64,000 bases of DNA, from NCBI RefSeq assembly GCF_050320075.1, contig NZ_CP190018.1; one strand, written 5' to 3'. The position numbers and the translations under genes were made by a program. The notes under the pieces were generated by a model. That model searched no databases, was not told the DNA's origin, and saw only the letters and a program-made list of their open reading frames with translations. Position 1 is the stretch's first letter. Each line of letters begins with the position of its first letter. The stretch is from Escherichia coli (GTDB taxonomy: Bacteria; Pseudomonadota; Gammaproteobacteria; Enterobacterales; Enterobacteriaceae). Of the stretch, positions 45,390 to 58,434 are shown in pieces.

Positions 45390-45764
45390 TACCGTTGTCT
45401 CTCTTCCAGGTTTACTCCTGATAGAAAGTCATCGGCACTTGACGGTAATTTCTTACGACCAAAAACCTCTTTGCGTCACATTTTTACAACAATTATGGCA
45501 GAGAAGAATAATGCCATTGGAATGAAGAGAGTAACGAATGATTAAACTGGCTAAACCGAATGACGAAAAATTCTGGAAAACAGCACGCAATTTCGTGAAG
45601 TGATTATTTTCGTCCCTAAGGAAACCTCATAGGATGCCTGCGGGTGCCTGAGACTTTCTGTTTTCAGGCTAACCGGGAATCAGAAAGACGAAGGCCCCGA
45701 CCGATATTTCTATCAACTGTACTGCACCCATTTTGTTGGACGATGAAATGGAATAGCCCCTAAT

Positions 45765-46286
45765 ATGTCAAAGCCAAAATACCCTTTTGAAAAGCGCCTT
45801 GAAGTCGTGAATCACTACTTCACAACTGATGATGGTTACAGGATCATCTCGGCACGTTTTGGTGTCCCCCGAACCCAGGTCAGGACATGGGTTGCCCTCT
45901 ATGAAAAACATGGAGAAAAAGGTTTAATTCCCAAACCTAAAGGCGTTAGTGCTGATCCAGAGTTGCGTATTAAGGTCGTGAAAGCTGTGATCGAGCAGCA
46001 CATGTCCCTTAATCAGGCTGCTGCTCACTTTATGCTTGCTGGTAGTGGTTCTGTAGCCAGGTGGCTGAAGGTCTATGAAGAGCGCGGAGAAGCTGGTTTA
46101 CGCGCGCTCAAGATTGGCACCAAAAGAAACATTGCAATATCAGTTGATCCAGAAAAAGCGGCATCAGCATTGGAGCTGTCAAAAGACCGACGCATTGAGG
46201 ATCTTGAAAGGCAAGTTCGATTTCTTGAAACGCGGCTTATGTATCTAAAAAAGCTGAAAGCCTTAGCTCATCCCACGAAAAAGTAA
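45765..46286 (+). CDS. insJ: IS150 OrfA (InsJ), helix-turn-helix DNA-binding protein
   Basis: 173 aa MSKPKYPFEKRLEVVNHYF. Confidence 0.85.
   Translation: MSKPKYPFEKRLEVVNHYFTTDDGYRIISARFGVPRTQVRTWVALYEKHGEKGLIPKPKGVSADPELRIKVVKAVIEQHMSLNQAAAHFMLAGSGSVARWLKVYEERGEAGLRALKIGTKRNIAISVDPEKAASALELSKDRRIEDLERQVRFLETRLMYLKKLKALAHPTKK
46277..46283 (+). other. putative programmed -1 ribosomal frameshift site (A AAA AAG) joining orfA to orfB
   Basis: Slippery heptamer at the orfA/orfB overlap, as in IS3-family elements. Confidence 0.5.
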
Positions 46287-47134
46287 AAGTACTCAACGAG
46301 CTAAGGCAGTTTTATCCTCTTGATGAGCTTCTCAGGGCTGCGGAGATACCGCGCAGTACGTTTTATTACCATCTAAAGGCTCTCAGCAAGCCTGACAAGT
46401 ATGCGGACGTTAAAAAGCGTATTGGTGAGATTTATCACGAGAATAGAGGCCGATACGGATACCGTAGGGTAACGCTGTCTCTTCATCGAGAAGGGAAACA
46501 GATTAACCATAAAGCTGTTCAGCGCCTGATGGGAACCCTCTCACTTAAAGCAGCGATTAAGGTCAAGCGATACCGCTCTTACAGAGGAGAGGTAGGGCAA
46601 ACCGCCCCTAATGTTCTCCAAAGAGATTTCAAGGCTACGCGGCCAAACGAGAAGTGGGTTACCGATGTTACTGAATTTGTAGTCAATGGGCGCAAGCTGT
46701 ATTTGTCTCCAGTAATAGATCTCTTCAACAACGAAGTTATTTCTTACAGCCTTTCGGAAAGACCAGTGATGAACATGGTTGAGAATATGCTCGATCAGGC
46801 ATTCAAAAAGCTTAATCCTCACGAGCATCCTGTTCTGCACTCTGACCAGGGATGGCAGTATCGTATGAGAAGATATCAAAATATCCTTAAAGAACATGGT
46901 ATTAAACAAAGCATGTCCAGAAAAGGCAATTGTCTGGATAATGCTGTGGTGGAGTGTTTCTTTGGAACCTTAAAGTCGGAGTGTTTTTATCTTGATGAGT
47001 TCAGTAATATAAGCGAACTGAAGGATGCTGTTACGGAATATATTGAATACTACAACAGCAGAAGAATTAGCCTGAAATTAAAAGGTCTGACTCCAATTGA
47101 ATATCGGAATCAGACCTATATGCCTCGTGTTTAA
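46283..47134 (+). CDS. insK: IS150 OrfB (InsK), DDE transposase catalytic domain, expressed as an OrfAB fusion by frameshift
   Basis: Frame open from about 46268; DDE integrase-like sequence. Confidence 0.75.
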
Positions 47135-47175
47135 CTGTCCAACTTTTTGGGGTCAGTACAAACCGAGGCCAACGA

Positions 47176-47383
<208 letters not shown>

Positions 47384-47798: not shown

Positions 47799-47862
47799 CT
47801 TCCGATGTAGACCCGTATTCTTCGCCTGTACCACGGGTCGGTTTTAGTACAGGCGTTTTCTT
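47799..47862 (+). ncRNA. rydC: RydC small RNA (Hfq-dependent, pseudoknot), approximate ends
   Basis: cybB-ydcA intergenic location; CTTCCGATGTAGACCCGTATTC...; hairpin CCTGTAC/GTACAGG with T-run; TATAAT-like -10 box upstream. Confidence 0.55.
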
Positions 47863-47872
47863 TAAATATCCT

Positions 47873-48403
47873 TCAGGAACGTTTACGCGGCATCATGCGT
47901 AGAAGTGTGTTGTCCTTCCAGAAATAGTGGTGTGCCAGTGCAGCCGCAGCGTGCAACCCGATGACAAAATATCCCAGATTCGCCAGCATTTCATGCCACG
48001 ACTTTAAGCTATCAACCCGTTCGAAATTGGCCTCTGATGCATAAGGCATCGTCAAACCAAACGCAAACCACGGGTTGCCTCGGTTATACATCATCACCAA
48101 ACCAATCACTGGCAGCGCAATAAACAGGAGATAAATCACCAAATGTCCCAAATGCGCCAGTCCCGTCATCATCGGTTTTGGCTTAGGTATAATCGGCGGG
48201 GTTGGGTATTTCAGCCTTAACAAAAGACGAACGACCATCAGCACGAGAATTGATATGCCACAGGAAACATGAATCATGTTGATGAGTGGCCGATCGCTAC
48301 GTGGGAAGAACCCCCGAAACTCCATTGCGCAATACGCTGCAATAACCAGCAAAAAGACCAGCCAGTGAATGCTGATTTGTAACCTTGAGTATTTATTTTC
48401 CAT
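47873..48403 (-). CDS. cybB: cytochrome b561
   Basis: 176 aa from MENKYSRLQISIHW; four-helix membrane protein with conserved His residues. Confidence 0.85.
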   Translation of the reverse strand: MENKYSRLQISIHWLVFLLVIAAYCAMEFRGFFPRSDRPLINMIHVSCGISILVLMVVRLLLRLKYPTPPIIPKPKPMMTGLAHLGHLVIYLLFIALPVIGLVMMYNRGNPWFAFGLTMPYASEANFERVDSLKSWHEMLANLGYFVIGLHAAAALAHHYFWKDNTLLRMMPRKRS

Positions 48404-48591
48404 AACATTTCCTGCTTTAACATAATTTTCCGTTAACATAACGGGCTTTTCTTAAAATTTCATTAAATATTGTTCACCCGTTTTCAGTACGTTACGTTTC
48501 ACGGCAAGAATGTAGATTGCCCATCCCGCCATCCTGGTCTAAGCCTGGAAAGGATCAATTTTCATCCGAACGTTCCTGACAGGAGAAGACC

Positions 48592-49593
48592 ATGAGTAAA
48601 GTTGGTATTAACGGTTTTGGTCGTATCGGTCGACTGGTGTTGCGTCGATTACTTGAAGTCAAAAGCAACATAGACATTGTCGCTATTAATGATCTCACTT
48701 CCCCAAAAATTCTCGCCTACCTGCTGAAACATGATTCAAACTATGGACCGTTCCCCTGGAGCGTTGATTTTACGGAAGATTCACTTATCGTTGATGGGAA
48801 AAGTATCGCGGTTTACGCCGAAAAAGAGGCTAAAAATATTCCGTGGAAAGCGAAAGGGGCAGAAATTATTGTCGAATGTACTGGCTTTTATACCTCCGCC
48901 GAGAAATCGCAGGCGCATCTTGATGCTGGTGCGAAGAAGGTGTTGATTTCCGCCCCTGCCGGTGAAATGAAAACTATCGTTTATAACGTCAATGACGACA
49001 CTCTGGATGGCAACGACACCATTGTTTCCGTGGCGTCATGCACCACTAACTGCCTTGCGCCGATGGCCAAAGCCTTGCACGACAGTTTCGGAATAGAAGT
49101 CGGCACGATGACGACCATTCATGCCTATACCGGCACTCAGTCACTGGTGGATGGCCCGCGTGGTAAAGATTTACGTGCTTCACGCGCAGCGGCAGAAAAT
49201 ATCATTCCCCACACTACGGGGGCGGCAAAAGCCATTGGTCTGGTGATCCCAGAACTGAGCGGCAAACTGAAAGGTCATGCGCAACGCGTGCCGGTGAAAA
49301 CAGGTTCCGTCACTGAACTGGTATCGATTCTCGGAAAAAAAGTGACTGCCGAAGAGGTGAATAACGCACTTAAACAAGCAACCACCAATAACGAGTCATT
49401 TGGTTATACCGATGAAGAAATAGTCTCTTCCGATATCATTGGCAGCCATTTCGGTTCGGTGTTTGATGCCACGCAAACCGAAATTACCGCCGTGGGCGAT
49501 TTACAACTGGTGAAAACGGTCGCCTGGTACGATAACGAATATGGCTTCGTCACGCAGCTTATTCGCACCCTCGAAAAATTCGCTAAACTCTGA
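48592..49593 (+). CDS. gapC: glyceraldehyde-3-phosphate dehydrogenase C, intact 333-aa reading frame
   Basis: NAD motif NGFGRIGR; catalytic SCTTNC. Confidence 0.85.
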
Positions 49594-49634
49594 CGCGCAC
49601 AGGCGGAGGAAAAAACCTCCGCCTCTTTCACTCA

Positions 49635-51074
49635 TTAAGACTGTAAATAAACCACCTGGGTCTGCAGATATTCATGCAGGCCATGTTTACCATCTGCGCC
49701 GCCAATACCGGATTTACGCCATCCGGCGTGGAAGCCTTGCATAGCTTCGAAGTTTTCACGGTTGATGTAAGTTTCACCAAACTTCAGCCCTTTAATGGCT
49801 TTCATCGCGACGTTCAGATTTTGGGTATAGATTGATGAGGTCAGGCCGTAATCACTGTCATTCGCCATTGCGATAGCATCTTCCAGCGTGTCAAATGCGA
49901 CCACTGGCAGAACCGGGCCAAAGGTTTCCTCATGCATAATCGACATTTCCTGGCGAACATCCAGCAGCAATGTCGGCGGATAATAATATCCTTTCCCCTC
50001 TACCGCTTTGCCACCCAACGCCACTCTCGCCCCTTCTTCTACTGCGCGCGCCACTTTTTGCTCGACCCTTTCCAGCGCCGCGGCGTTAATCAACGGCCCC
50101 ATCGCAATGTCGTTGCGTTCTGCGGGGTTACCAAATTGAACCGCCTGCAACGCTTCACCCAGCCGATTGACGAACTGATCATAAATGCCTTTCTGTACAT
50201 AAACACGTTCTGCACAGTTACACACTTGCCCACTATTAATGACGCGTGAATCAACGATGGCTTTGACTGCCAGTTCAAGATCGGCATCGTCCATTACGAT
50301 AGCTGGTGCTTTACCCCCCAATTCCAGGCACACTTTGGTGATGTTTTTCGCCGCAGTCGCCATGATCTTTTCACCTGCAGAGACGCTGCCTGTCATACTG
50401 ACCATTGCGACCTTTGGGTTACCCGCCAGTTCTTGCCCAACGGTTTCACCACGCCCCAGAACAAGGTTAAACACGCCGCGCGGAAGGCCTATTTCATCGA
50501 CGATTTTGGCGAATGCAATCGCATTGTTTGGCGTAAATTCACTGGGTTTAATGACAATGGTATTACCAGTCAAAAGAGCGGGAGCCATTTTGCGGGCAAT
50601 GAGGAAGAACGGGAAGTTCCACGGCAGAATGCCGGTAGTCACACCAAGCGCACGTTTAAACAGAAGAATATTTTCTCCTGGACGATCGCTTTGAATAATC
50701 TCGCCCTCGTAACGCCGTGCCCACTCCGCCATGTAATCGATATAGTCCGCAGTAAAAGCCACTTCGACTTCAGCCAGCTGCTGGATCTTGCCCCCTTCTT
50801 CAACAATCAGCGCACTGATTTCACTGGCGCGTTCGCGGATCCCGACGGAGATTTTGCGCAACCAACTGGCGCGTTCAATAGCAGGCAACGCTTCCCATTC
50901 TGGTTGTGCACGTTCTGCTGCATCGATTGCCTTACGGGCATCCTCGGCCTGACCATCGGGAATGCGGGAAATGACAGCCTCTGTAGCAGGGTTTACCACA
51001 TCAATCCATGCGTCTCCACGCCAGGTAACAAACTGTCCATCAATATACATAGGATGTTGAACGGGTACTGACAT
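49635..51074 (-). CDS. aldA: lactaldehyde dehydrogenase
   Basis: 479 aa; ALDH motifs ELGGKAP and QVCNCAERV. Confidence 0.9.
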   Translation of the reverse strand: MSVPVQHPMYIDGQFVTWRGDAWIDVVNPATEAVISRIPDGQAEDARKAIDAAERAQPEWEALPAIERASWLRKISVGIRERASEISALIVEEGGKIQQLAEVEVAFTADYIDYMAEWARRYEGEIIQSDRPGENILLFKRALGVTTGILPWNFPFFLIARKMAPALLTGNTIVIKPSEFTPNNAIAFAKIVDEIGLPRGVFNLVLGRGETVGQELAGNPKVAMVSMTGSVSAGEKIMATAAKNITKVCLELGGKAPAIVMDDADLELAVKAIVDSRVINSGQVCNCAERVYVQKGIYDQFVNRLGEALQAVQFGNPAERNDIAMGPLINAAALERVEQKVARAVEEGARVALGGKAVEGKGYYYPPTLLLDVRQEMSIMHEETFGPVLPVVAFDTLEDAIAMANDSDYGLTSSIYTQNLNVAMKAIKGLKFGETYINRENFEAMQGFHAGWRKSGIGGADGKHGLHEYLQTQVVYLQS

Positions 51075-52186: not shown

Positions 52187-52564
52187 TTAGTCATACTGTA
52201 TTTGCGGAGAAACTGTTGATAAAACATCAATAACATCATTTGACGTGGCAATGACATAATGCTCGATCACATTATTTTTATAAATTTCACAACTTTGCAT
52301 AGTAAACCATGCAAAGTAGGCGGAATTCACTACTCTATAGATCCCCGTTTGGTTAATACCGTGAATTCCTGACATTCCTAACAAATCACCTTCGTCAGTA
52401 ACACGAAATGAATGTATCCAGTCAAATGATAACTTAACTTCTGACTTGATCGCCGGACATATGAGGGTAAGTTCAAGCCTGGCATTTTTATAGCTTAAAT
52501 CTGATAGTTCGGCATTTTTAAAAGACAATGAAGTCGGAGTGATATTTATAAAACATTCATCCAT
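52187..52564 (-). CDS. hypothetical small protein (125 aa), AT-rich islet gene C
   Basis: Uninterrupted ORF co-directional with the two genes upstream; no recognisable family. Confidence 0.5.
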   Translation of the reverse strand: MDECFINITPTSLSFKNAELSDLSYKNARLELTLICPAIKSEVKLSFDWIHSFRVTDEGDLLGMSGIHGINQTGIYRVVNSAYFAWFTMQSCEIYKNNVIEHYVIATSNDVIDVLSTVSPQIQYD

Positions 52565-52683
52565 GTTAATACCCCTTCATATATGAGACTGCTCTCGATA
52601 GACGACACATTAACCTTCTGCAAAAACGGTGCGAGTCTGTTTACGTACCATGTATAATCGATGGACATTACTGTGATTTGAAA

Positions 52684-53142
52684 TTACCTTGTCCAGTCAT
52701 CAACCATTTTTTTCAGGGGGAACATCTGCAATACATTCATTAATGCGAAATATAATTCCCCCTGTGGCACCCATATTCTAATCTTCTCATCCCCTAAAAT
52801 GAAAAATTGCAATTGACGTTTGAAACCTAATGTTTTATCTTCAGGTAATTCAGCTTGTATTTTTTTATTGATATCATCAAGGTAGATGTGATGACAATAC
52901 TCATCAAACATACTCATTACTTCCAGACCGTTTACAGATGTCCATCTTTGTTCACTTTCCCAATAAACAAGAACCGGTTTGCGGCAGGTATATCTGCCTA
53001 AAAAGCGCTGAATGTGTTCTTCCTGATTCTCGTAAAATATTGCCTCTGCATTCGAGATTTGCCGACGCATTCGCCAGCGGATTTTTTCTTCATAAAAAGA
53101 CAATTTGTCGCATTTGGTATTACTCAAATTCATTGTCAACAA
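52684..53142 (-). CDS. hypothetical small protein (about 150 aa), AT-rich islet gene B; start uncertain
   Basis: Uninterrupted ORF; overlaps the end of islet gene A. Confidence 0.5.
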   Translation of the reverse strand: MLTMNLSNTKCDKLSFYEEKIRWRMRRQISNAEAIFYENQEEHIQRFLGRYTCRKPVLVYWESEQRWTSVNGLEVMSMFDEYCHHIYLDDINKKIQAELPEDKTLGFKRQLQFFILGDEKIRIWVPQGELYFALMNVLQMFPLKKMVDDWTR

Positions 53143-53512
53143 CTCGCATGGTTTTAAATATAAAATTTAAAAAACCGCCAAACAAATGAAGTGAAATTTC
53201 ATACTTCTTTGCCTTATAAACAATTACCGCATCTTTAATATTACCTGCATTTTGGTTATCTATAAGTTCAGCAATATCCATAACCTGCGATAAATGTTCC
53301 ACTCCCGTAAACTCGAACCTTTTTCGTTCCCTTCCGGCTGTAAATTCATCAACATAAAGTTCTGCCGTCAATATAAAATTATACTCGGTGTGGTGACATT
53401 CCATTCTGGTTTCTACTAAAACACCATCATGCCAGATAATATTGTCTAAATTTTTCATACTATTAATCCAATCCATTACTTTCTGATAAAATTTCCTCTG
53501 GAAGTTTTTCAT
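53120..53512 (-). CDS. hypothetical small protein (130 aa), AT-rich islet gene A
   Basis: Uninterrupted ORF; first gene of the three-gene islet. Confidence 0.5.
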   Translation of the reverse strand: MKNFQRKFYQKVMDWINSMKNLDNIIWHDGVLVETRMECHHTEYNFILTAELYVDEFTAGRERKRFEFTGVEHLSQVMDIAELIDNQNAGNIKDAVIVYKAKKYEISLHLFGGFLNFIFKTMRVVDNEFE

Positions 53513-53685: not shown

Positions 53686-54755
53686 GCTGAATTTACAATC
53701 CAAGTGCAACAAAAAAAGAAGTACTCATCAACTAGAATATAATTTTGTTTCCACACAAAAACCATTTCCAAATGATGAGTACTTCCTACCGACATCTTAC
53801 AATAAACGAGCGAGAAAAGATAATGATTTTACTCGCACAGGGCAAAAAACAAGCAGAAATTGCCAAAGCACTGGGACGTAGCTCCAGCACCATTTCTCGC
53901 GAGCTGAAACGACACGCTCTAGAAAGCTACAGTGCAACGAACGCACAAAACAGCTATTTGAAGCATCGTCAAAATAGCAAAGCACAGCGCAAATTAGAGC
54001 AGCCTGAATATTTCAATTTGGTGCAAGAAAAGTTTCTGACAGAAAACTGGTCGCCCGAACAAATCAGCGCACGATTAAAATTGGAAAAATCTGAATTATC
54101 CATTAGTTATTCAACCATTTATCGTGGTATTTATTCAGGGTTGTTTGATATAGGCGAACGCAAAGCCAGTCGCAAACTGCGCCACAAAGGCAAAACACGG
54201 CATACAAAAAATCATCATGAAAAACGTGGCAAAATTCAGATATCCAACCATTTGAACGACCGTCCCATTTCGGCGCAAAATCGCAGTCGCTTTGGACATT
54301 GGGAAGCCGATACCGTACTGGGTAAAGCGGGTGGAGCTTGTTTGCTGACGCTGACGGAACGCAAAAGTCGTTTTGAGTTGGTGAAGAAAATTCCTGCCAA
54401 AAAAGCCGAAGCAGTCCAAAAAGCCATGATTGAATTGCTGGATTCACATATATTGCGGTCAATTACGCCAGACCGTGGTAAAGAATTTGCCCAACATCGT
54501 TTGGTAACAGAAGCACTGGGTGTAGAATTTTACTTCCCCGAGCCGCATCAACCGTGGACACGGGGAACGAATGAAAATACAAATGGGTTACTTCGTGAAT
54601 ACTTTCCGAAGCACCAAGACATCAATCAGTGGAGCGAAGTTGATATTCAACAGGTGATCAATAAACTGAATTTACGACCACGTAAATGTTTAGGTTGGAA
54701 AACACCTTATGAAGTTTACTTCAAAAAATCGTTGCACTTGGTTTGACAATTCAAG
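53686..54755 (+). mobile_element. ISApl1 (IS30 family), upstream copy, transposase intact
   Basis: 1070 bp; imperfect terminal inverted repeats TGAATTTACAATCCAAGTGCAAC / TGAATTGTCAAACCAAGTGCAAC (reverse complement). Confidence 0.85.
53823..54746 (+). CDS. tnpA: ISApl1 transposase (IS30 family, DDE); 307 aa from MILLAQGKKQ, alternative upstream starts at 53772/53775 possible
   Basis: HTH region LGRSSSTISRELKR; C-terminal DDE integrase core. Confidence 0.8.
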   Translation: MILLAQGKKQAEIAKALGRSSSTISRELKRHALESYSATNAQNSYLKHRQNSKAQRKLEQPEYFNLVQEKFLTENWSPEQISARLKLEKSELSISYSTIYRGIYSGLFDIGERKASRKLRHKGKTRHTKNHHEKRGKIQISNHLNDRPISAQNRSRFGHWEADTVLGKAGGACLLTLTERKSRFELVKKIPAKKAEAVQKAMIELLDSHILRSITPDRGKEFAQHRLVTEALGVEFYFPEPHQPWTRGTNENTNGLLREYFPKHQDINQWSEVDIQQVINKLNLRPRKCLGWKTPYEVYFKKSLHLV

Positions 54756-54941
54756 ATACAAATTATAAATACTCTCAAGTGTATATTCAGTATGGGATTG
54801 CGCAATGATTGCCTAATAAAATTTCTGAAATATTTCTGTATCGCATAATTTTTTATATCAGATAAATTGTACTGGATTTCTTAAAAAATTGCAGTATAAT
54901 TGCCGCAATTATCCCACCGTTTATTTTTTGAGTAGTTTCTC

Positions 54942-56567
54942 ATGATGCAGCATACTTCTGTGTGGTACCGACGCTCGGTCAGTCCGTTTGTTCTTGTGGC
55001 GAGTGTTGCCGTTTTCTTGACCGCGACCGCCAATCTTACCTTTTTTGATAAAATCAGCCAAACCTATCCCATCGCGGACAATCTCGGCTTTGTGCTGACG
55101 ATCGCTGTCGTGCTCTTTGGCGCGATGCTACTGATCACCACGCTGTTATCATCGTATCGCTATGTGCTAAAGCCTGTGTTGATTTTGCTATTAATCATGG
55201 GCGCGGTGACCAGTTATTTTACTGACACTTATGGCACGGTCTATGATACGACCATGCTCCAAAATGCCCTACAGACCGACCAAGCCGAGACCAAGGATCT
55301 ATTAAACGCAGCGTTTATCATGCGTATCATTGGTTTGGGTGTGCTACCAAGTTTGCTTGTGGCTTTTGTTAAGGTGGATTATCCGACTTGGGGCAAGGGT
55401 TTGATGCGCCGATTGGGCTTGATCGTGGCAAGTCTTGCGCTGATTTTACTGCCTGTGGTGGCGTTCAGCAGTCATTATGCCAGTTTCTTTCGCGTGCATA
55501 AGCCGCTGCGTAGCTATGTCAATCCGATCATGCCAATCTACTCGGTGGGTAAGCTTGCCAGTATTGAGTATAAAAAAGCCAGTGCGCCAAAAGATACCAT
55601 TTATCACGCCAAAGACGCGGTACAAGCAACCAAGCCTGATATGCGTAAGCCACGCCTAGTGGTGTTCGTCGTCGGTGAGACGGCACGCGCCGATCATGTC
55701 AGCTTCAATGGCTATGAGCGCGATACTTTCCCACAGCTTGCCAAGATCGATGGCGTGACCAATTTTAGCAATGTCACATCGTGCGGCACATCGACGGCGT
55801 ATTCTGTGCCGTGTATGTTCAGCTATCTGGGCGCGGATGAGTATGATGTCGATACCGCCAAATACCAAGAAAATGTGCTGGATACGCTGGATCGCTTGGG
55901 CGTAAGTATCTTGTGGCGTGATAATAATTCGGACTCAAAAGGCGTGATGGATAAGCTGCCAAAAGCGCAATTTGCCGATTATAAATCCGCGACCAACAAC
56001 GCCATCTGCAACACCAATCCTTATAACGAATGCCGCGATGTCGGTATGCTCGTTGGCTTAGATGACTTTGTCGCTGCCAATAACGGCAAAGATATGCTGA
56101 TCATGCTGCACCAAATGGGCAATCACGGGCCTGCGTATTTTAAGCGATATGATGAAAAGTTTGCCAAATTCACGCCAGTGTGTGAAGGTAATGAGCTTGC
56201 CAAGTGCGAACATCAGTCCTTGATCAATGCTTATGACAATGCCTTGCTTGCCACCGATGATTTCATCGCTCAAAGTATCCAGTGGCTGCAGACGCACAGC
56301 AATGCCTATGATGTCTCAATGCTGTATGTCAGCGATCATGGCGAAAGTCTGGGTGAGAACGGTGTCTATCTACATGGTATGCCAAATGCCTTTGCACCAA
56401 AAGAACAGCGCAGTGTGCCTGCATTTTTCTGGACGGATAAGCAAACTGGCATCACGCCAATGGCAACCGATACCGTCCTGACCCATGACGCGATCACGCC
56501 GACATTATTAAAGCTGTTTGATGTCACCGCGGACAAAGTCAAAGACCGCACCGCATTCATCCGCTGA
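54942..56567 (+). CDS. mcr-1: phosphoethanolamine--lipid A transferase MCR-1 (mobile colistin resistance)
   Basis: 541 aa; MMQHTSVWYRRSVSPFVLVAS N-terminus, five-helix membrane domain, sulfatase-like catalytic domain with the nucleophile Thr in the CGTSTAYS motif. Confidence 0.95.
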   Translation: MMQHTSVWYRRSVSPFVLVASVAVFLTATANLTFFDKISQTYPIADNLGFVLTIAVVLFGAMLLITTLLSSYRYVLKPVLILLLIMGAVTSYFTDTYGTVYDTTMLQNALQTDQAETKDLLNAAFIMRIIGLGVLPSLLVAFVKVDYPTWGKGLMRRLGLIVASLALILLPVVAFSSHYASFFRVHKPLRSYVNPIMPIYSVGKLASIEYKKASAPKDTIYHAKDAVQATKPDMRKPRLVVFVVGETARADHVSFNGYERDTFPQLAKIDGVTNFSNVTSCGTSTAYSVPCMFSYLGADEYDVDTAKYQENVLDTLDRLGVSILWRDNNSDSKGVMDKLPKAQFADYKSATNNAICNTNPYNECRDVGMLVGLDDFVAANNGKDMLIMLHQMGNHGPAYFKRYDEKFAKFTPVCEGNELAKCEHQSLINAYDNALLATDDFIAQSIQWLQTHSNAYDVSMLYVSDHGESLGENGVYLHGMPNAFAPKEQRSVPAFFWTDKQTGITPMATDTVLTHDAITPTLLKLFDVTADKVKDRTAFIR

Positions 56568-56614
56568 TTTCTCCCTGTATTTTTTCCAAACCCACCGCAC
56601 ACTCCATTCGTATT

Positions 56615-57361
56615 ATGGGCGGTGGGGTGGGGTTTGTTATGCCGTATTTATCAAATAAACGCCTACTTGCTGAGATGAGTATCGCTCTTGTCATGGCGAT
56701 CGTTGCCACGCTGACCCTTGAGCACAGTCAGATTGATCTGATGGTCGCTGATTGGTTTTATCTGGGTATGGGGCATTGGATGGTTGCCAAGCAAGCTTTT
56801 TTGCCAGATTTGCTACTGTATTCTGGACTAAAAAAGCTGCTGATGGCGATGCTGATCTACTTGCTGGTTGCGACCATTTGCCGTGCTTATCATGAGAAAA
56901 AGGGCAATGCTATCACTGCCAAGTGGCTTGTCCCAGTGACAAAATTTCGCGTGCGTGAGCTTGCGTATCTGGTGCTGACTTTGATCCTAGTGCCGACAGT
57001 TGTCGCGTCATTGAAGGCATATACTCATGTGGTCTGCCCTGTGCATTTGACGATTTTTGATGGTACGCTGCCGTATTTGCCGATGCTTGATAGTATGCGT
57101 AACACCATTCCTGATAAGTGCTTTCCTGCGGCGCATGCCAGTAGCGGATTTGCGCTGTTTGCCTTTGCGTTTGCGCCAAGTTTGCGCCGCCGTCGTGGTG
57201 CGATCATCATCGTGGTGATGGCATTGGGCTGGGCGATGGGCTGCTATAAGATGATTATTGGCGATCATTTTTTGAGCCATACGGTGGTGTCGATGATGCT
57301 TGCGTGGGCGATGTCGGCAGGGCTTGCGTGGGTGTTTTTTAAGAAGGGTGAACAAGTTTAA
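56615..57361 (+). CDS. pap2: PAP2-family membrane phosphatase (start may be 56639)
   Basis: 248-aa hydrophobic protein directly downstream of mcr-1, as in the mcr-1 cassette. Confidence 0.8.
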   Translation: MGGGVGFVMPYLSNKRLLAEMSIALVMAIVATLTLEHSQIDLMVADWFYLGMGHWMVAKQAFLPDLLLYSGLKKLLMAMLIYLLVATICRAYHEKKGNAITAKWLVPVTKFRVRELAYLVLTLILVPTVVASLKAYTHVVCPVHLTIFDGTLPYLPMLDSMRNTIPDKCFPAAHASSGFALFAFAFAPSLRRRRGAIIIVVMALGWAMGCYKMIIGDHFLSHTVVSMMLAWAMSAGLAWVFFKKGEQV

Positions 57362-57364
57362 TCG

Positions 57365-58434
57365 GCTGAATTTACAATCCAAGTGCAACAAAAAAAGAAG
57401 TACTCATCAACTAGAATATAATTTTGTTTCCACACAAAAACCACTTCCAAATGATGAGTACTTCCTACCGACATCTTACAATAAACGAGCGAGAAAAGAT
57501 AATGATTTTACTCGCACAGGGCAAAAAATAAGCAGAAATTGCCAAAGCACTGGGACGTAGCTCCAGCACCATTTCTCGCGAGCTGAAACGACACGCTCTA
57601 GAAAGCTACAGTGCAACGAACGCACAAAACAGCTATTTGAAGCATCGTCAAAATAGCAAAGCACAGCGCAAATTAGAGCAGCCTGAATATTTCAATTTGG
57701 TGCAAGAAAAGTTTCTGACAGAAAACTGGTCGCCCGAACAAATCAGCGCACGATTAAAATTGGAAAAATCTGAATTATCCATTAGTTATTCAACCATTTA
57801 TCGTGGTATTTATTCAGGGTTGTTTGATATAGGCGAACGCAAAGCCAGTCGCAAACTGCGCCACAAAGGCAAAACACGGCATACAAAAAATCATCATGAA
57901 AAACGTGGCAAAATTCAGATATCCAACCATTTGAACGACCGTCCCATTTCGGCGCAAAATCGCAGTCGCTTTGGACATTGGGAAGCCGATACCGTACTGG
58001 GTAAAGCGGGTGGAGCTTGTTTGCTGACGCTGACGGAACGCAAAAGTCGTTTTGAGTTGGTGAAGAAAATTCCTGCCAAAAAAGCCGAAGCAGTCCAAAA
58101 AGCCATGATTGAATTGCTGGATTCACATATATTGCGGTCAATTACGCCAGACCGTGGTAAAGAATTTGCCCAACATCGTTTGGTAACAGAAGCACTGGGT
58201 GTAGAATTTTACTTCCCCGAGCCGCATCAACCGTGGACACGGGGAACGAATGAAAATACAAATGGGTTACTTCGTGAATACTTTCCGAAGCACCAAGACA
58301 TCAATCAGTGGAGCGAAGTTGATATTCAACAGGTGATCAATAAACTGAATTTACGACCACGTAAATGTTTAGGTTGGAAAACACCTTATGAAGTTTACTT
58401 CAAAAAATCGTTGCACTTGGTTTGACAATTCAAG
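57365..58434 (+). mobile_element. ISApl1, downstream copy, transposase inactivated
   Basis: Co-linear with the upstream copy at a fixed offset of 3679 bp; at least two substitutions seen, including the nonsense change. Confidence 0.85.
57502..58425 (+). pseudogene. tnpA: ISApl1 transposase pseudogene, codon 10 CAA->TAA (57529..57531)
   Basis: GGCAAAAAATAAGCAGAAATT here versus GGCAAAAAACAAGCAGAAATT in the upstream copy; remainder of the frame matches copy 1. Confidence 0.8.

Follow-up and report, generated by a model that had tools for sequence, protein, structure and literature searches.

An intact gapC in an mcr-1-carrying Escherichia coli strain very likely encodes a second functional glyceraldehyde-3-phosphate dehydrogenase

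The gap family of Escherichia coli comprises gapA, epd (also known as gapB, erythrose-4-phosphate dehydrogenase) and gapC; gapA resembles the eukaryotic genes, and gapC is of the typical bacterial kind. A first-pass annotation of the window analysed here (the whole 64,000-nucleotide stretch of contig NZ_CP190018.1) described an intact gapC and named the K-12 gene a frameshifted pseudogene. This locus raises three questions: whether the reading frame is truly whole, whether it encodes a working glyceraldehyde-3-phosphate dehydrogenase (GAPDH), and whether an intact gapC sets this strain apart from the rest of the species.

Both the list of open reading frames and the raw sequence give gapC as 333 codons plus a TGA stop, beginning with ATG, on the plus strand at 48592..49593, with an AGGAG Shine-Dalgarno sequence at 48581-48585, 6 nt upstream of the start. 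To its left lies the divergent cybB (47873..48403, minus strand; Pfam match to cytochrome b561), and to its right the convergent aldA (49635..51074, minus strand), so that the coordinates, length and neighbours of the first-pass description all hold. The order cybB-gapC-aldA recurs in K-12, CFSAN061763 and strain 144, identifying the gene by position as the E. coli gapC orthologue, and its near-identity to other E. coli gapC copies identifies it by sequence. A chance reading frame was ruled out by strong homology and by the presence of the exact protein (WP_000048646.1) on at least 1000 contigs. Base composition gave no sign of a recent foreign origin of gapC (GC 0.48 in the gene, 0.49 in the whole window). 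From the reading frame, its Pfam and TIGR01534 matches (below) and its identity to WP_000048646.1, we annotate the product as a type I NAD-dependent GAPDH.

The corresponding K-12 locus (gapC_1/gapC_2, b1416/b1417) is a syntenic orthologue, identical at 98.0% of nucleotides over 1.2 kb, but RefSeq annotates the MG1655 gene as a pseudogene ("frameshifted; internal stop"). Our alignment with MG1655 gapC found 17 differences over 1,002 nt, two of them disabling. Codon 39 (48706..48708, plus strand) reads AAA (Lys) here and is a TAA stop in K-12, and a run of seven A residues across codons 248-250 (49335..49341, plus strand), in frame here, has lost one A in K-12, causing a frameshift. Of the remaining 15 differences, two are missense (R18G and I29V) and 13 synonymous. 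The earlier statement that K-12 gapC is frameshifted was thus accurate but incomplete, as annotation and alignment both add a nonsense codon; the K-12 copy is disabled, not intact.

The encoded protein has the complete architecture of a GAPDH. Pfam recovered both the N-terminal (Gp_dh_N, PF00044; E = 8.6e-36) and C-terminal (Gp_dh_C, PF02800; E = 6.5e-58) domains, with scores far above the gathering thresholds. The NCBIfam GAPDH-I model TIGR01534 matched residues 3-325 of 333 at 446.7 bits (cut-off 367.2); it is the only NCBIfam model whose curated cut-off the protein passes, and it places GapC in the type I family over essentially its full length. The dinucleotide-binding GxGxxG motif of the Rossmann fold is present as GFGRIG at codons 8-13 (48613..48630, plus strand), aligned with GapA and contained in an NAD-binding motif that spans residues 5-14, and it is accompanied by an acidic residue, Asp34 (48691-48693, plus strand), within INDL. 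From general knowledge of GAPDHs, we take Asp34 to be the residue that binds the adenosine ribose of NAD, and an acidic residue at this position (Asp32 in B. stearothermophilus numbering) presumably favours NAD. The catalytic pair consists of Cys150 (TGC, 49039..49041, plus strand), within SCTTNC at residues 149-154, and His177 (CAT, 49120..49122, plus strand), about 27 residues further on in TIHAYT; Thr180, Arg195/198, Arg232 and Asn315 are also present. The NAD-binding and catalytic Cys motifs that had been reported from the sequence are therefore all in place, and careful alignment with GapA revealed no loss of catalytic residues.

Other members of the superfamily were considered as possible identities. 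GapC is 47% identical to the housekeeping GAPDH, GapA (b1779), and has the same fold, catalytic Cys and His, phosphate-binding Arg and NAD-binding motif, but its 301.9 bits fall short of the 662 that the GapA-type model PRK15425 requires. With Epd (GapB) it has the superfamily and domain architecture in common, but the two Epd models gave 279.8 bits (PRK13535; cut-off 539) and 276.5 bits (cut-off 530.55). The model for ArsJ-associated glyceraldehyde-3-phosphate (G3P) dehydrogenases gave 307.3 bits (cut-off 450), and the neighbours of the gene are cybB and aldA, with no arsJ. All three identities were rejected, since they fail the curated NCBIfam cut-offs. In a sequence search of the PDB, the scores of GapC with other bacterial GAPDHs (about 400-480 bits) exceeded those with every eukaryotic-type enzyme listed, in agreement with gapC being the typical bacterial copy.

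The PDB search also returned an enzyme designated EcGAPDH1, reportedly crystallised by Zhang et al. (2020/2021), which is identical to the window protein at 332 of 333 positions, the sole difference being I29V. The matching entries (7C5F, 7C5G, 7C5H, 7C5P, 7C7K and others) include Cys150 and His177 mutants. EcGAPDH1 catalyses the NAD-linked GAPDH reaction with a G3P Km of 0.73 mM, assayed at pH 10 and 50 °C, conditions far from physiological (PMC8615399). Its C150A mutant is inactive, H177A and C150S lower activity about 8,000-fold and 38,000-fold, respectively, and its crystals contain NAD/NADH, G3P, the thioacyl intermediate and 1,3-bisphosphoglycerate (PMC8615399). The source strain of the crystallised construct was not found in PMC8615399.

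Among known forms of GapC, RefSeq WP_000048646.1 is identical to the window protein and comes from the same cybB-aldA locus, whereas the O157:H7 allele in our sample differs from it at I29V and N132K; UniProt lists GapC of O157:H7 as P58072 (cited in PMC10614358). Codon 29 (48676) lies in the beta-strand preceding Asp34; it encodes Ile here and Val in all 15 intact alleles sampled from other lineages as well as in the PDB protein, and only strains 144 and CFSAN061763 in the sample have the Ile29 allele in common with the window. Judged by sequence, I29V is a conservative, lineage-marking polymorphism.

Because GAPDH chemistry was measured one conservative residue away, we infer activity for the Ile29 variant, and on this analysis the window gapC very likely encodes a functional enzyme. 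In that enzyme, the Cys150 thiolate, activated by His177, would attack C1 of G3P, hydride transfer to NAD+ would yield a thioacyl enzyme, and inorganic phosphate would then free 1,3-bisphosphoglycerate. The suggestion that this strain may retain a functional third GAPDH consequently stands, with one point of wording: the near-identity to EcGAPDH1 and the low ratio of amino-acid-changing to synonymous polymorphism (below) support a functional additional GAPDH, but GapC is the third member of the gap family and only the second true GAPDH.

Expression of gapC may be tied to slow growth or to life outside the host, to judge from published work. The 188-nt divergent intergenic region between cybB and gapC (48404..48591) holds a putative gapC promoter and the AGGAG ribosome-binding site. 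A consensus promoter scan gave a single sigma-70 match (48397-48426), no better than expected by chance. Seven SNPs distinguish the region from K-12, and every variant is shared with other sampled lineages; we accordingly rejected the idea of an unusual promoter region here, as these SNPs are ordinary polymorphism. In K-12, a ChIP-seq peak of sigma-S RNA polymerase lies in the gapC/cybB intergenic region (PMC4447067). Transcripts of gapC-1/gapC-2 rose in slow-growing PTS-minus strains, which are K-12 derivatives, and fell upon inactivation of rpoS (PMC2759082). Preferential expression of gapC in fresh water is attributed to Espinosa-Urgel and Kolter (1998) in PMC2949598 and PMC1796617. Taken together, these observations suggest that gapC would be transcribed from the cybB-gapC intergenic region and that GapC may act as a sigma-S-dependent isoenzyme of slow growth and life outside the host, supplementing the housekeeping GapA.

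At the other end of the gene, between the convergent gapC and aldA, RNA folding identified a G+C-rich hairpin, AGGCGGAGG-AAAAAA-CCTCCGCCT, followed by a CTTTCAC tail (49601..49631). Its 9-bp stem (49601-49624) folds with -18.1 kcal/mol on the plus strand and -22.6 kcal/mol on the minus strand, and the hairpin is identical in K-12. A consensus terminator scan did not report it, owing to its short T tract. From its sequence and position, it is probably a bidirectional terminator serving both genes.

We then placed the allele among complete RefSeq genomes of E. coli. The gapC locus was found in 5417 of 5426. At least 80% of a 1.2-kb query was matched by 5408 of the 5426, and identity to it reached 95% or more in 5,330 of the 5,417. 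The 1.2-kb region is 100% identical in CFSAN061763 and the gene is identical in strain 144; both copies are annotated as intact WP_000048646.1. For a closer view, we took 40 evenly spaced matches of the genome search as a spread sample and fetched 19 of them: 16 carried an intact gapC, two (MG1655 and PK6, the latter from a healthy pig) the K-12 lesions, and one a gene truncated beside IS1A. Strain 144, a twentieth genome from outside the spread sample, has an intact gene. Across all 40 rows, seven showed a 1-nt deletion, as judged by alignment length, and one was truncated, making about 20% disrupted. Exact-match searches gave similar figures: a K-12 67-mer containing the TAA codon occurred in 1152 of 5426 genomes, and a K-12 82-mer containing the shortened A run in 1035 of 5426. 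We conclude that an intact gapC, carried by about 80% of these 5,426 genomes, is the majority state.

Among the matches listed, most carriers of the K-12 lesions were natural isolates, with humans, swine, a dog and river water as their sources. As the lesions are present in some 19-21% of genomes and most listed carriers are natural isolates, they predate laboratory domestication. This slightly corrects a literature summary (PMC2949598), which implies that K-12 lost gapC through domestication. The fuller proposition, that loss is a natural polymorphism and not a product of domestication, with one sublineage of about 20% of genomes having exactly both K-12 lesions in common and strong purifying selection maintaining the gene in the other 80%, and that it implies a niche-dependent role for GapC, we regard as evenly balanced between true and false. 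Were it true, that role might lie, for example, in sigma-S-dependent or out-of-host carbon metabolism and be dispensable for some host-adapted lineages, and the present strain would be a mere carrier of the selected, functional state.

Two of the fetched genomes show other changes at this locus. In SCPM-O-B-7615 (NZ_CP144926.1, 2653..4830), the one with the truncated gene, gapC was lost independently: an IS1A copy sits at a deletion of the 3' four-fifths of the gene and the 3' end of aldA. In strain 2014EL-1346-6, aldA is annotated as frameshifted and gapC is intact.

That gapC can be intact is already known, having been published in 1998, and our finding is in this respect correct but ordinary. 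Later papers trace the description of gapC to Hidalgo, Limon and Aguilar in 1996 (cited in PMC10614358) and its intact form in natural and environmental isolates to Espinosa-Urgel and Kolter in 1998 (via PMC2949598). The gene also serves as a qPCR marker for the species; among culture-positive urine samples, 98.8% were positive for it (PMC10614358).

Intact alleles are under strong purifying selection. Mean pS was 0.081 and mean pN 0.0034 (pN/pS 0.042) over the 15 intact alleles with distinct nucleotide sequences, and 69 polymorphic codons varied only synonymously, against 13 with amino-acid changes. Such constraint argues that the GapC protein is used wherever the gene is intact.

These data bear on three other explanations of the intact reading frame. 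One is that the frame is an artefact of sequencing or assembly, in which a miscounted A run hides a true K-12-type pseudogene; one K-12 lesion, the six- versus seven-A difference, does lie at a classic site of sequencing error. However, a miscount would leave the nonsense codon, and codon 39 is AAA; a 1,201-bp region is also 100% identical to that of the independently sequenced CFSAN061763, the gene is identical to that of strain 144, the exact protein recurs on the 1000 or more contigs noted above, and 15 further differences from K-12 place the allele in another lineage. We consider an artefact exceedingly improbable. It is also highly improbable that this GAPDH-fold protein has another main job, whether as an Epd-like erythrose-4-phosphate dehydrogenase or as an ArsJ-coupled GAPDH that detoxifies arsenate. 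The resemblance to Epd (PRK13535) and to ArsJ-associated enzymes stays far below the respective cut-offs, whereas the general GAPDH-I model is passed; cybB and aldA, not arsJ, adjoin the gene; and the near-identical EcGAPDH1 uses G3P and NAD, and its crystals contain G3P, the thioacyl intermediate and 1,3-bisphosphoglycerate.

A more substantial objection is that the frame is intact but silent or physiologically irrelevant, a cryptic gene drifting towards the decay seen in K-12. Indeed, gapC appears dispensable, because about 20% of genomes carry a pseudogene with no obvious penalty, and most of these are natural isolates, whose sources include humans, pigs and river water; an independent IS1-associated truncation has occurred in SCPM-O-B-7615, and our scan found no clear sigma-70 promoter. 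Against this, the pN/pS value over 15 distinct intact alleles indicates sustained selection at the protein level, even K-12 shows sigma-S RNA polymerase at the promoter region and transcription from it, and fresh-water expression has been reported, according to PMC2949598. On balance we think a silent gene unlikely and favour a gapC that is expressed and used.

Several other features of the window deserve mention, and one of them is more noteworthy than gapC itself. About 4 kb downstream of gapC, the chromosome carries a complete Tn6330 (ISApl1-mcr-1.1-pap2-ISApl1; 53686..58434), a 4,749-bp insertion relative to the closest relative, strain 144. The colistin-resistance gene mcr-1 (54942..56567) encodes a protein identical to MCR-1.1 (WP_049589868.1; 1302.7 bits with the MCR-1 family model), and pap2, which ends at 57361, encodes a PAP2 identical to the reference. 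Of the two ISApl1 transposases, the upstream one is intact and the downstream one is interrupted by the nonsense codon Q27* (C to T at 57529). Three small hypothetical genes adjoin the element on one side and hrpA on the other; a 2-bp AG target-site duplication (53684-85 and 58435-36) borders it, and all 5,426 complete RefSeq E. coli genomes lack its insertion junction. The three small genes (125, 152 and 130 aa; 52187..53512, minus strand) lie between ydcF and hrpA and gave no Pfam match. They are annotated as hypothetical proteins in strain 144 and are missing in K-12, where hrpA directly follows ydcF.

On the other side of gapC, the sRNA RydC, a known feature, adjoins cybB downstream (47799..47862, plus strand; Rfam RF00505, 92.5 bits). 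Beyond it, a copy of IS150 (IS3 family; about 45700..47200, coding sequence about 45765..47134) lies inside the hokB/sokB type I toxin-antitoxin locus. It separates the sok/hok-leader region, represented by a sok-like Rfam match at 45642..45794, from the hokB coding sequence (about 47234..47383), and probably cuts hokB off from its promoter. In all, 497 complete genomes have this configuration; CFSAN061763 and K-12 are without the insertion sequence.

The explanation that best accounts for these data as a whole, and in which we have high confidence, is that this strain carries a wild-type gapC encoding a competent, NAD-dependent phosphorylating GAPDH, which may act as a sigma-S isoenzyme, and that it represents an ancestral majority state from which K-12 departs by natural loss. 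K-12 would belong to a natural sublineage, about one-fifth of complete genomes, in which a nonsense mutation and a homopolymer frameshift disabled the gene, and the intact gene would be the ancestral as well as the majority state of the species. These findings caution against the use of K-12 as a reference for the species: metabolic models and knockout designs based on K-12 assume that GapA is the single GAPDH, yet most wild E. coli, including the present mcr-1 strain, encode a second, catalytically competent one. An intact natural gapC allele is the right material for testing the role of GapC, a second GAPDH that could buffer perturbation of gapA or aid survival outside the host.
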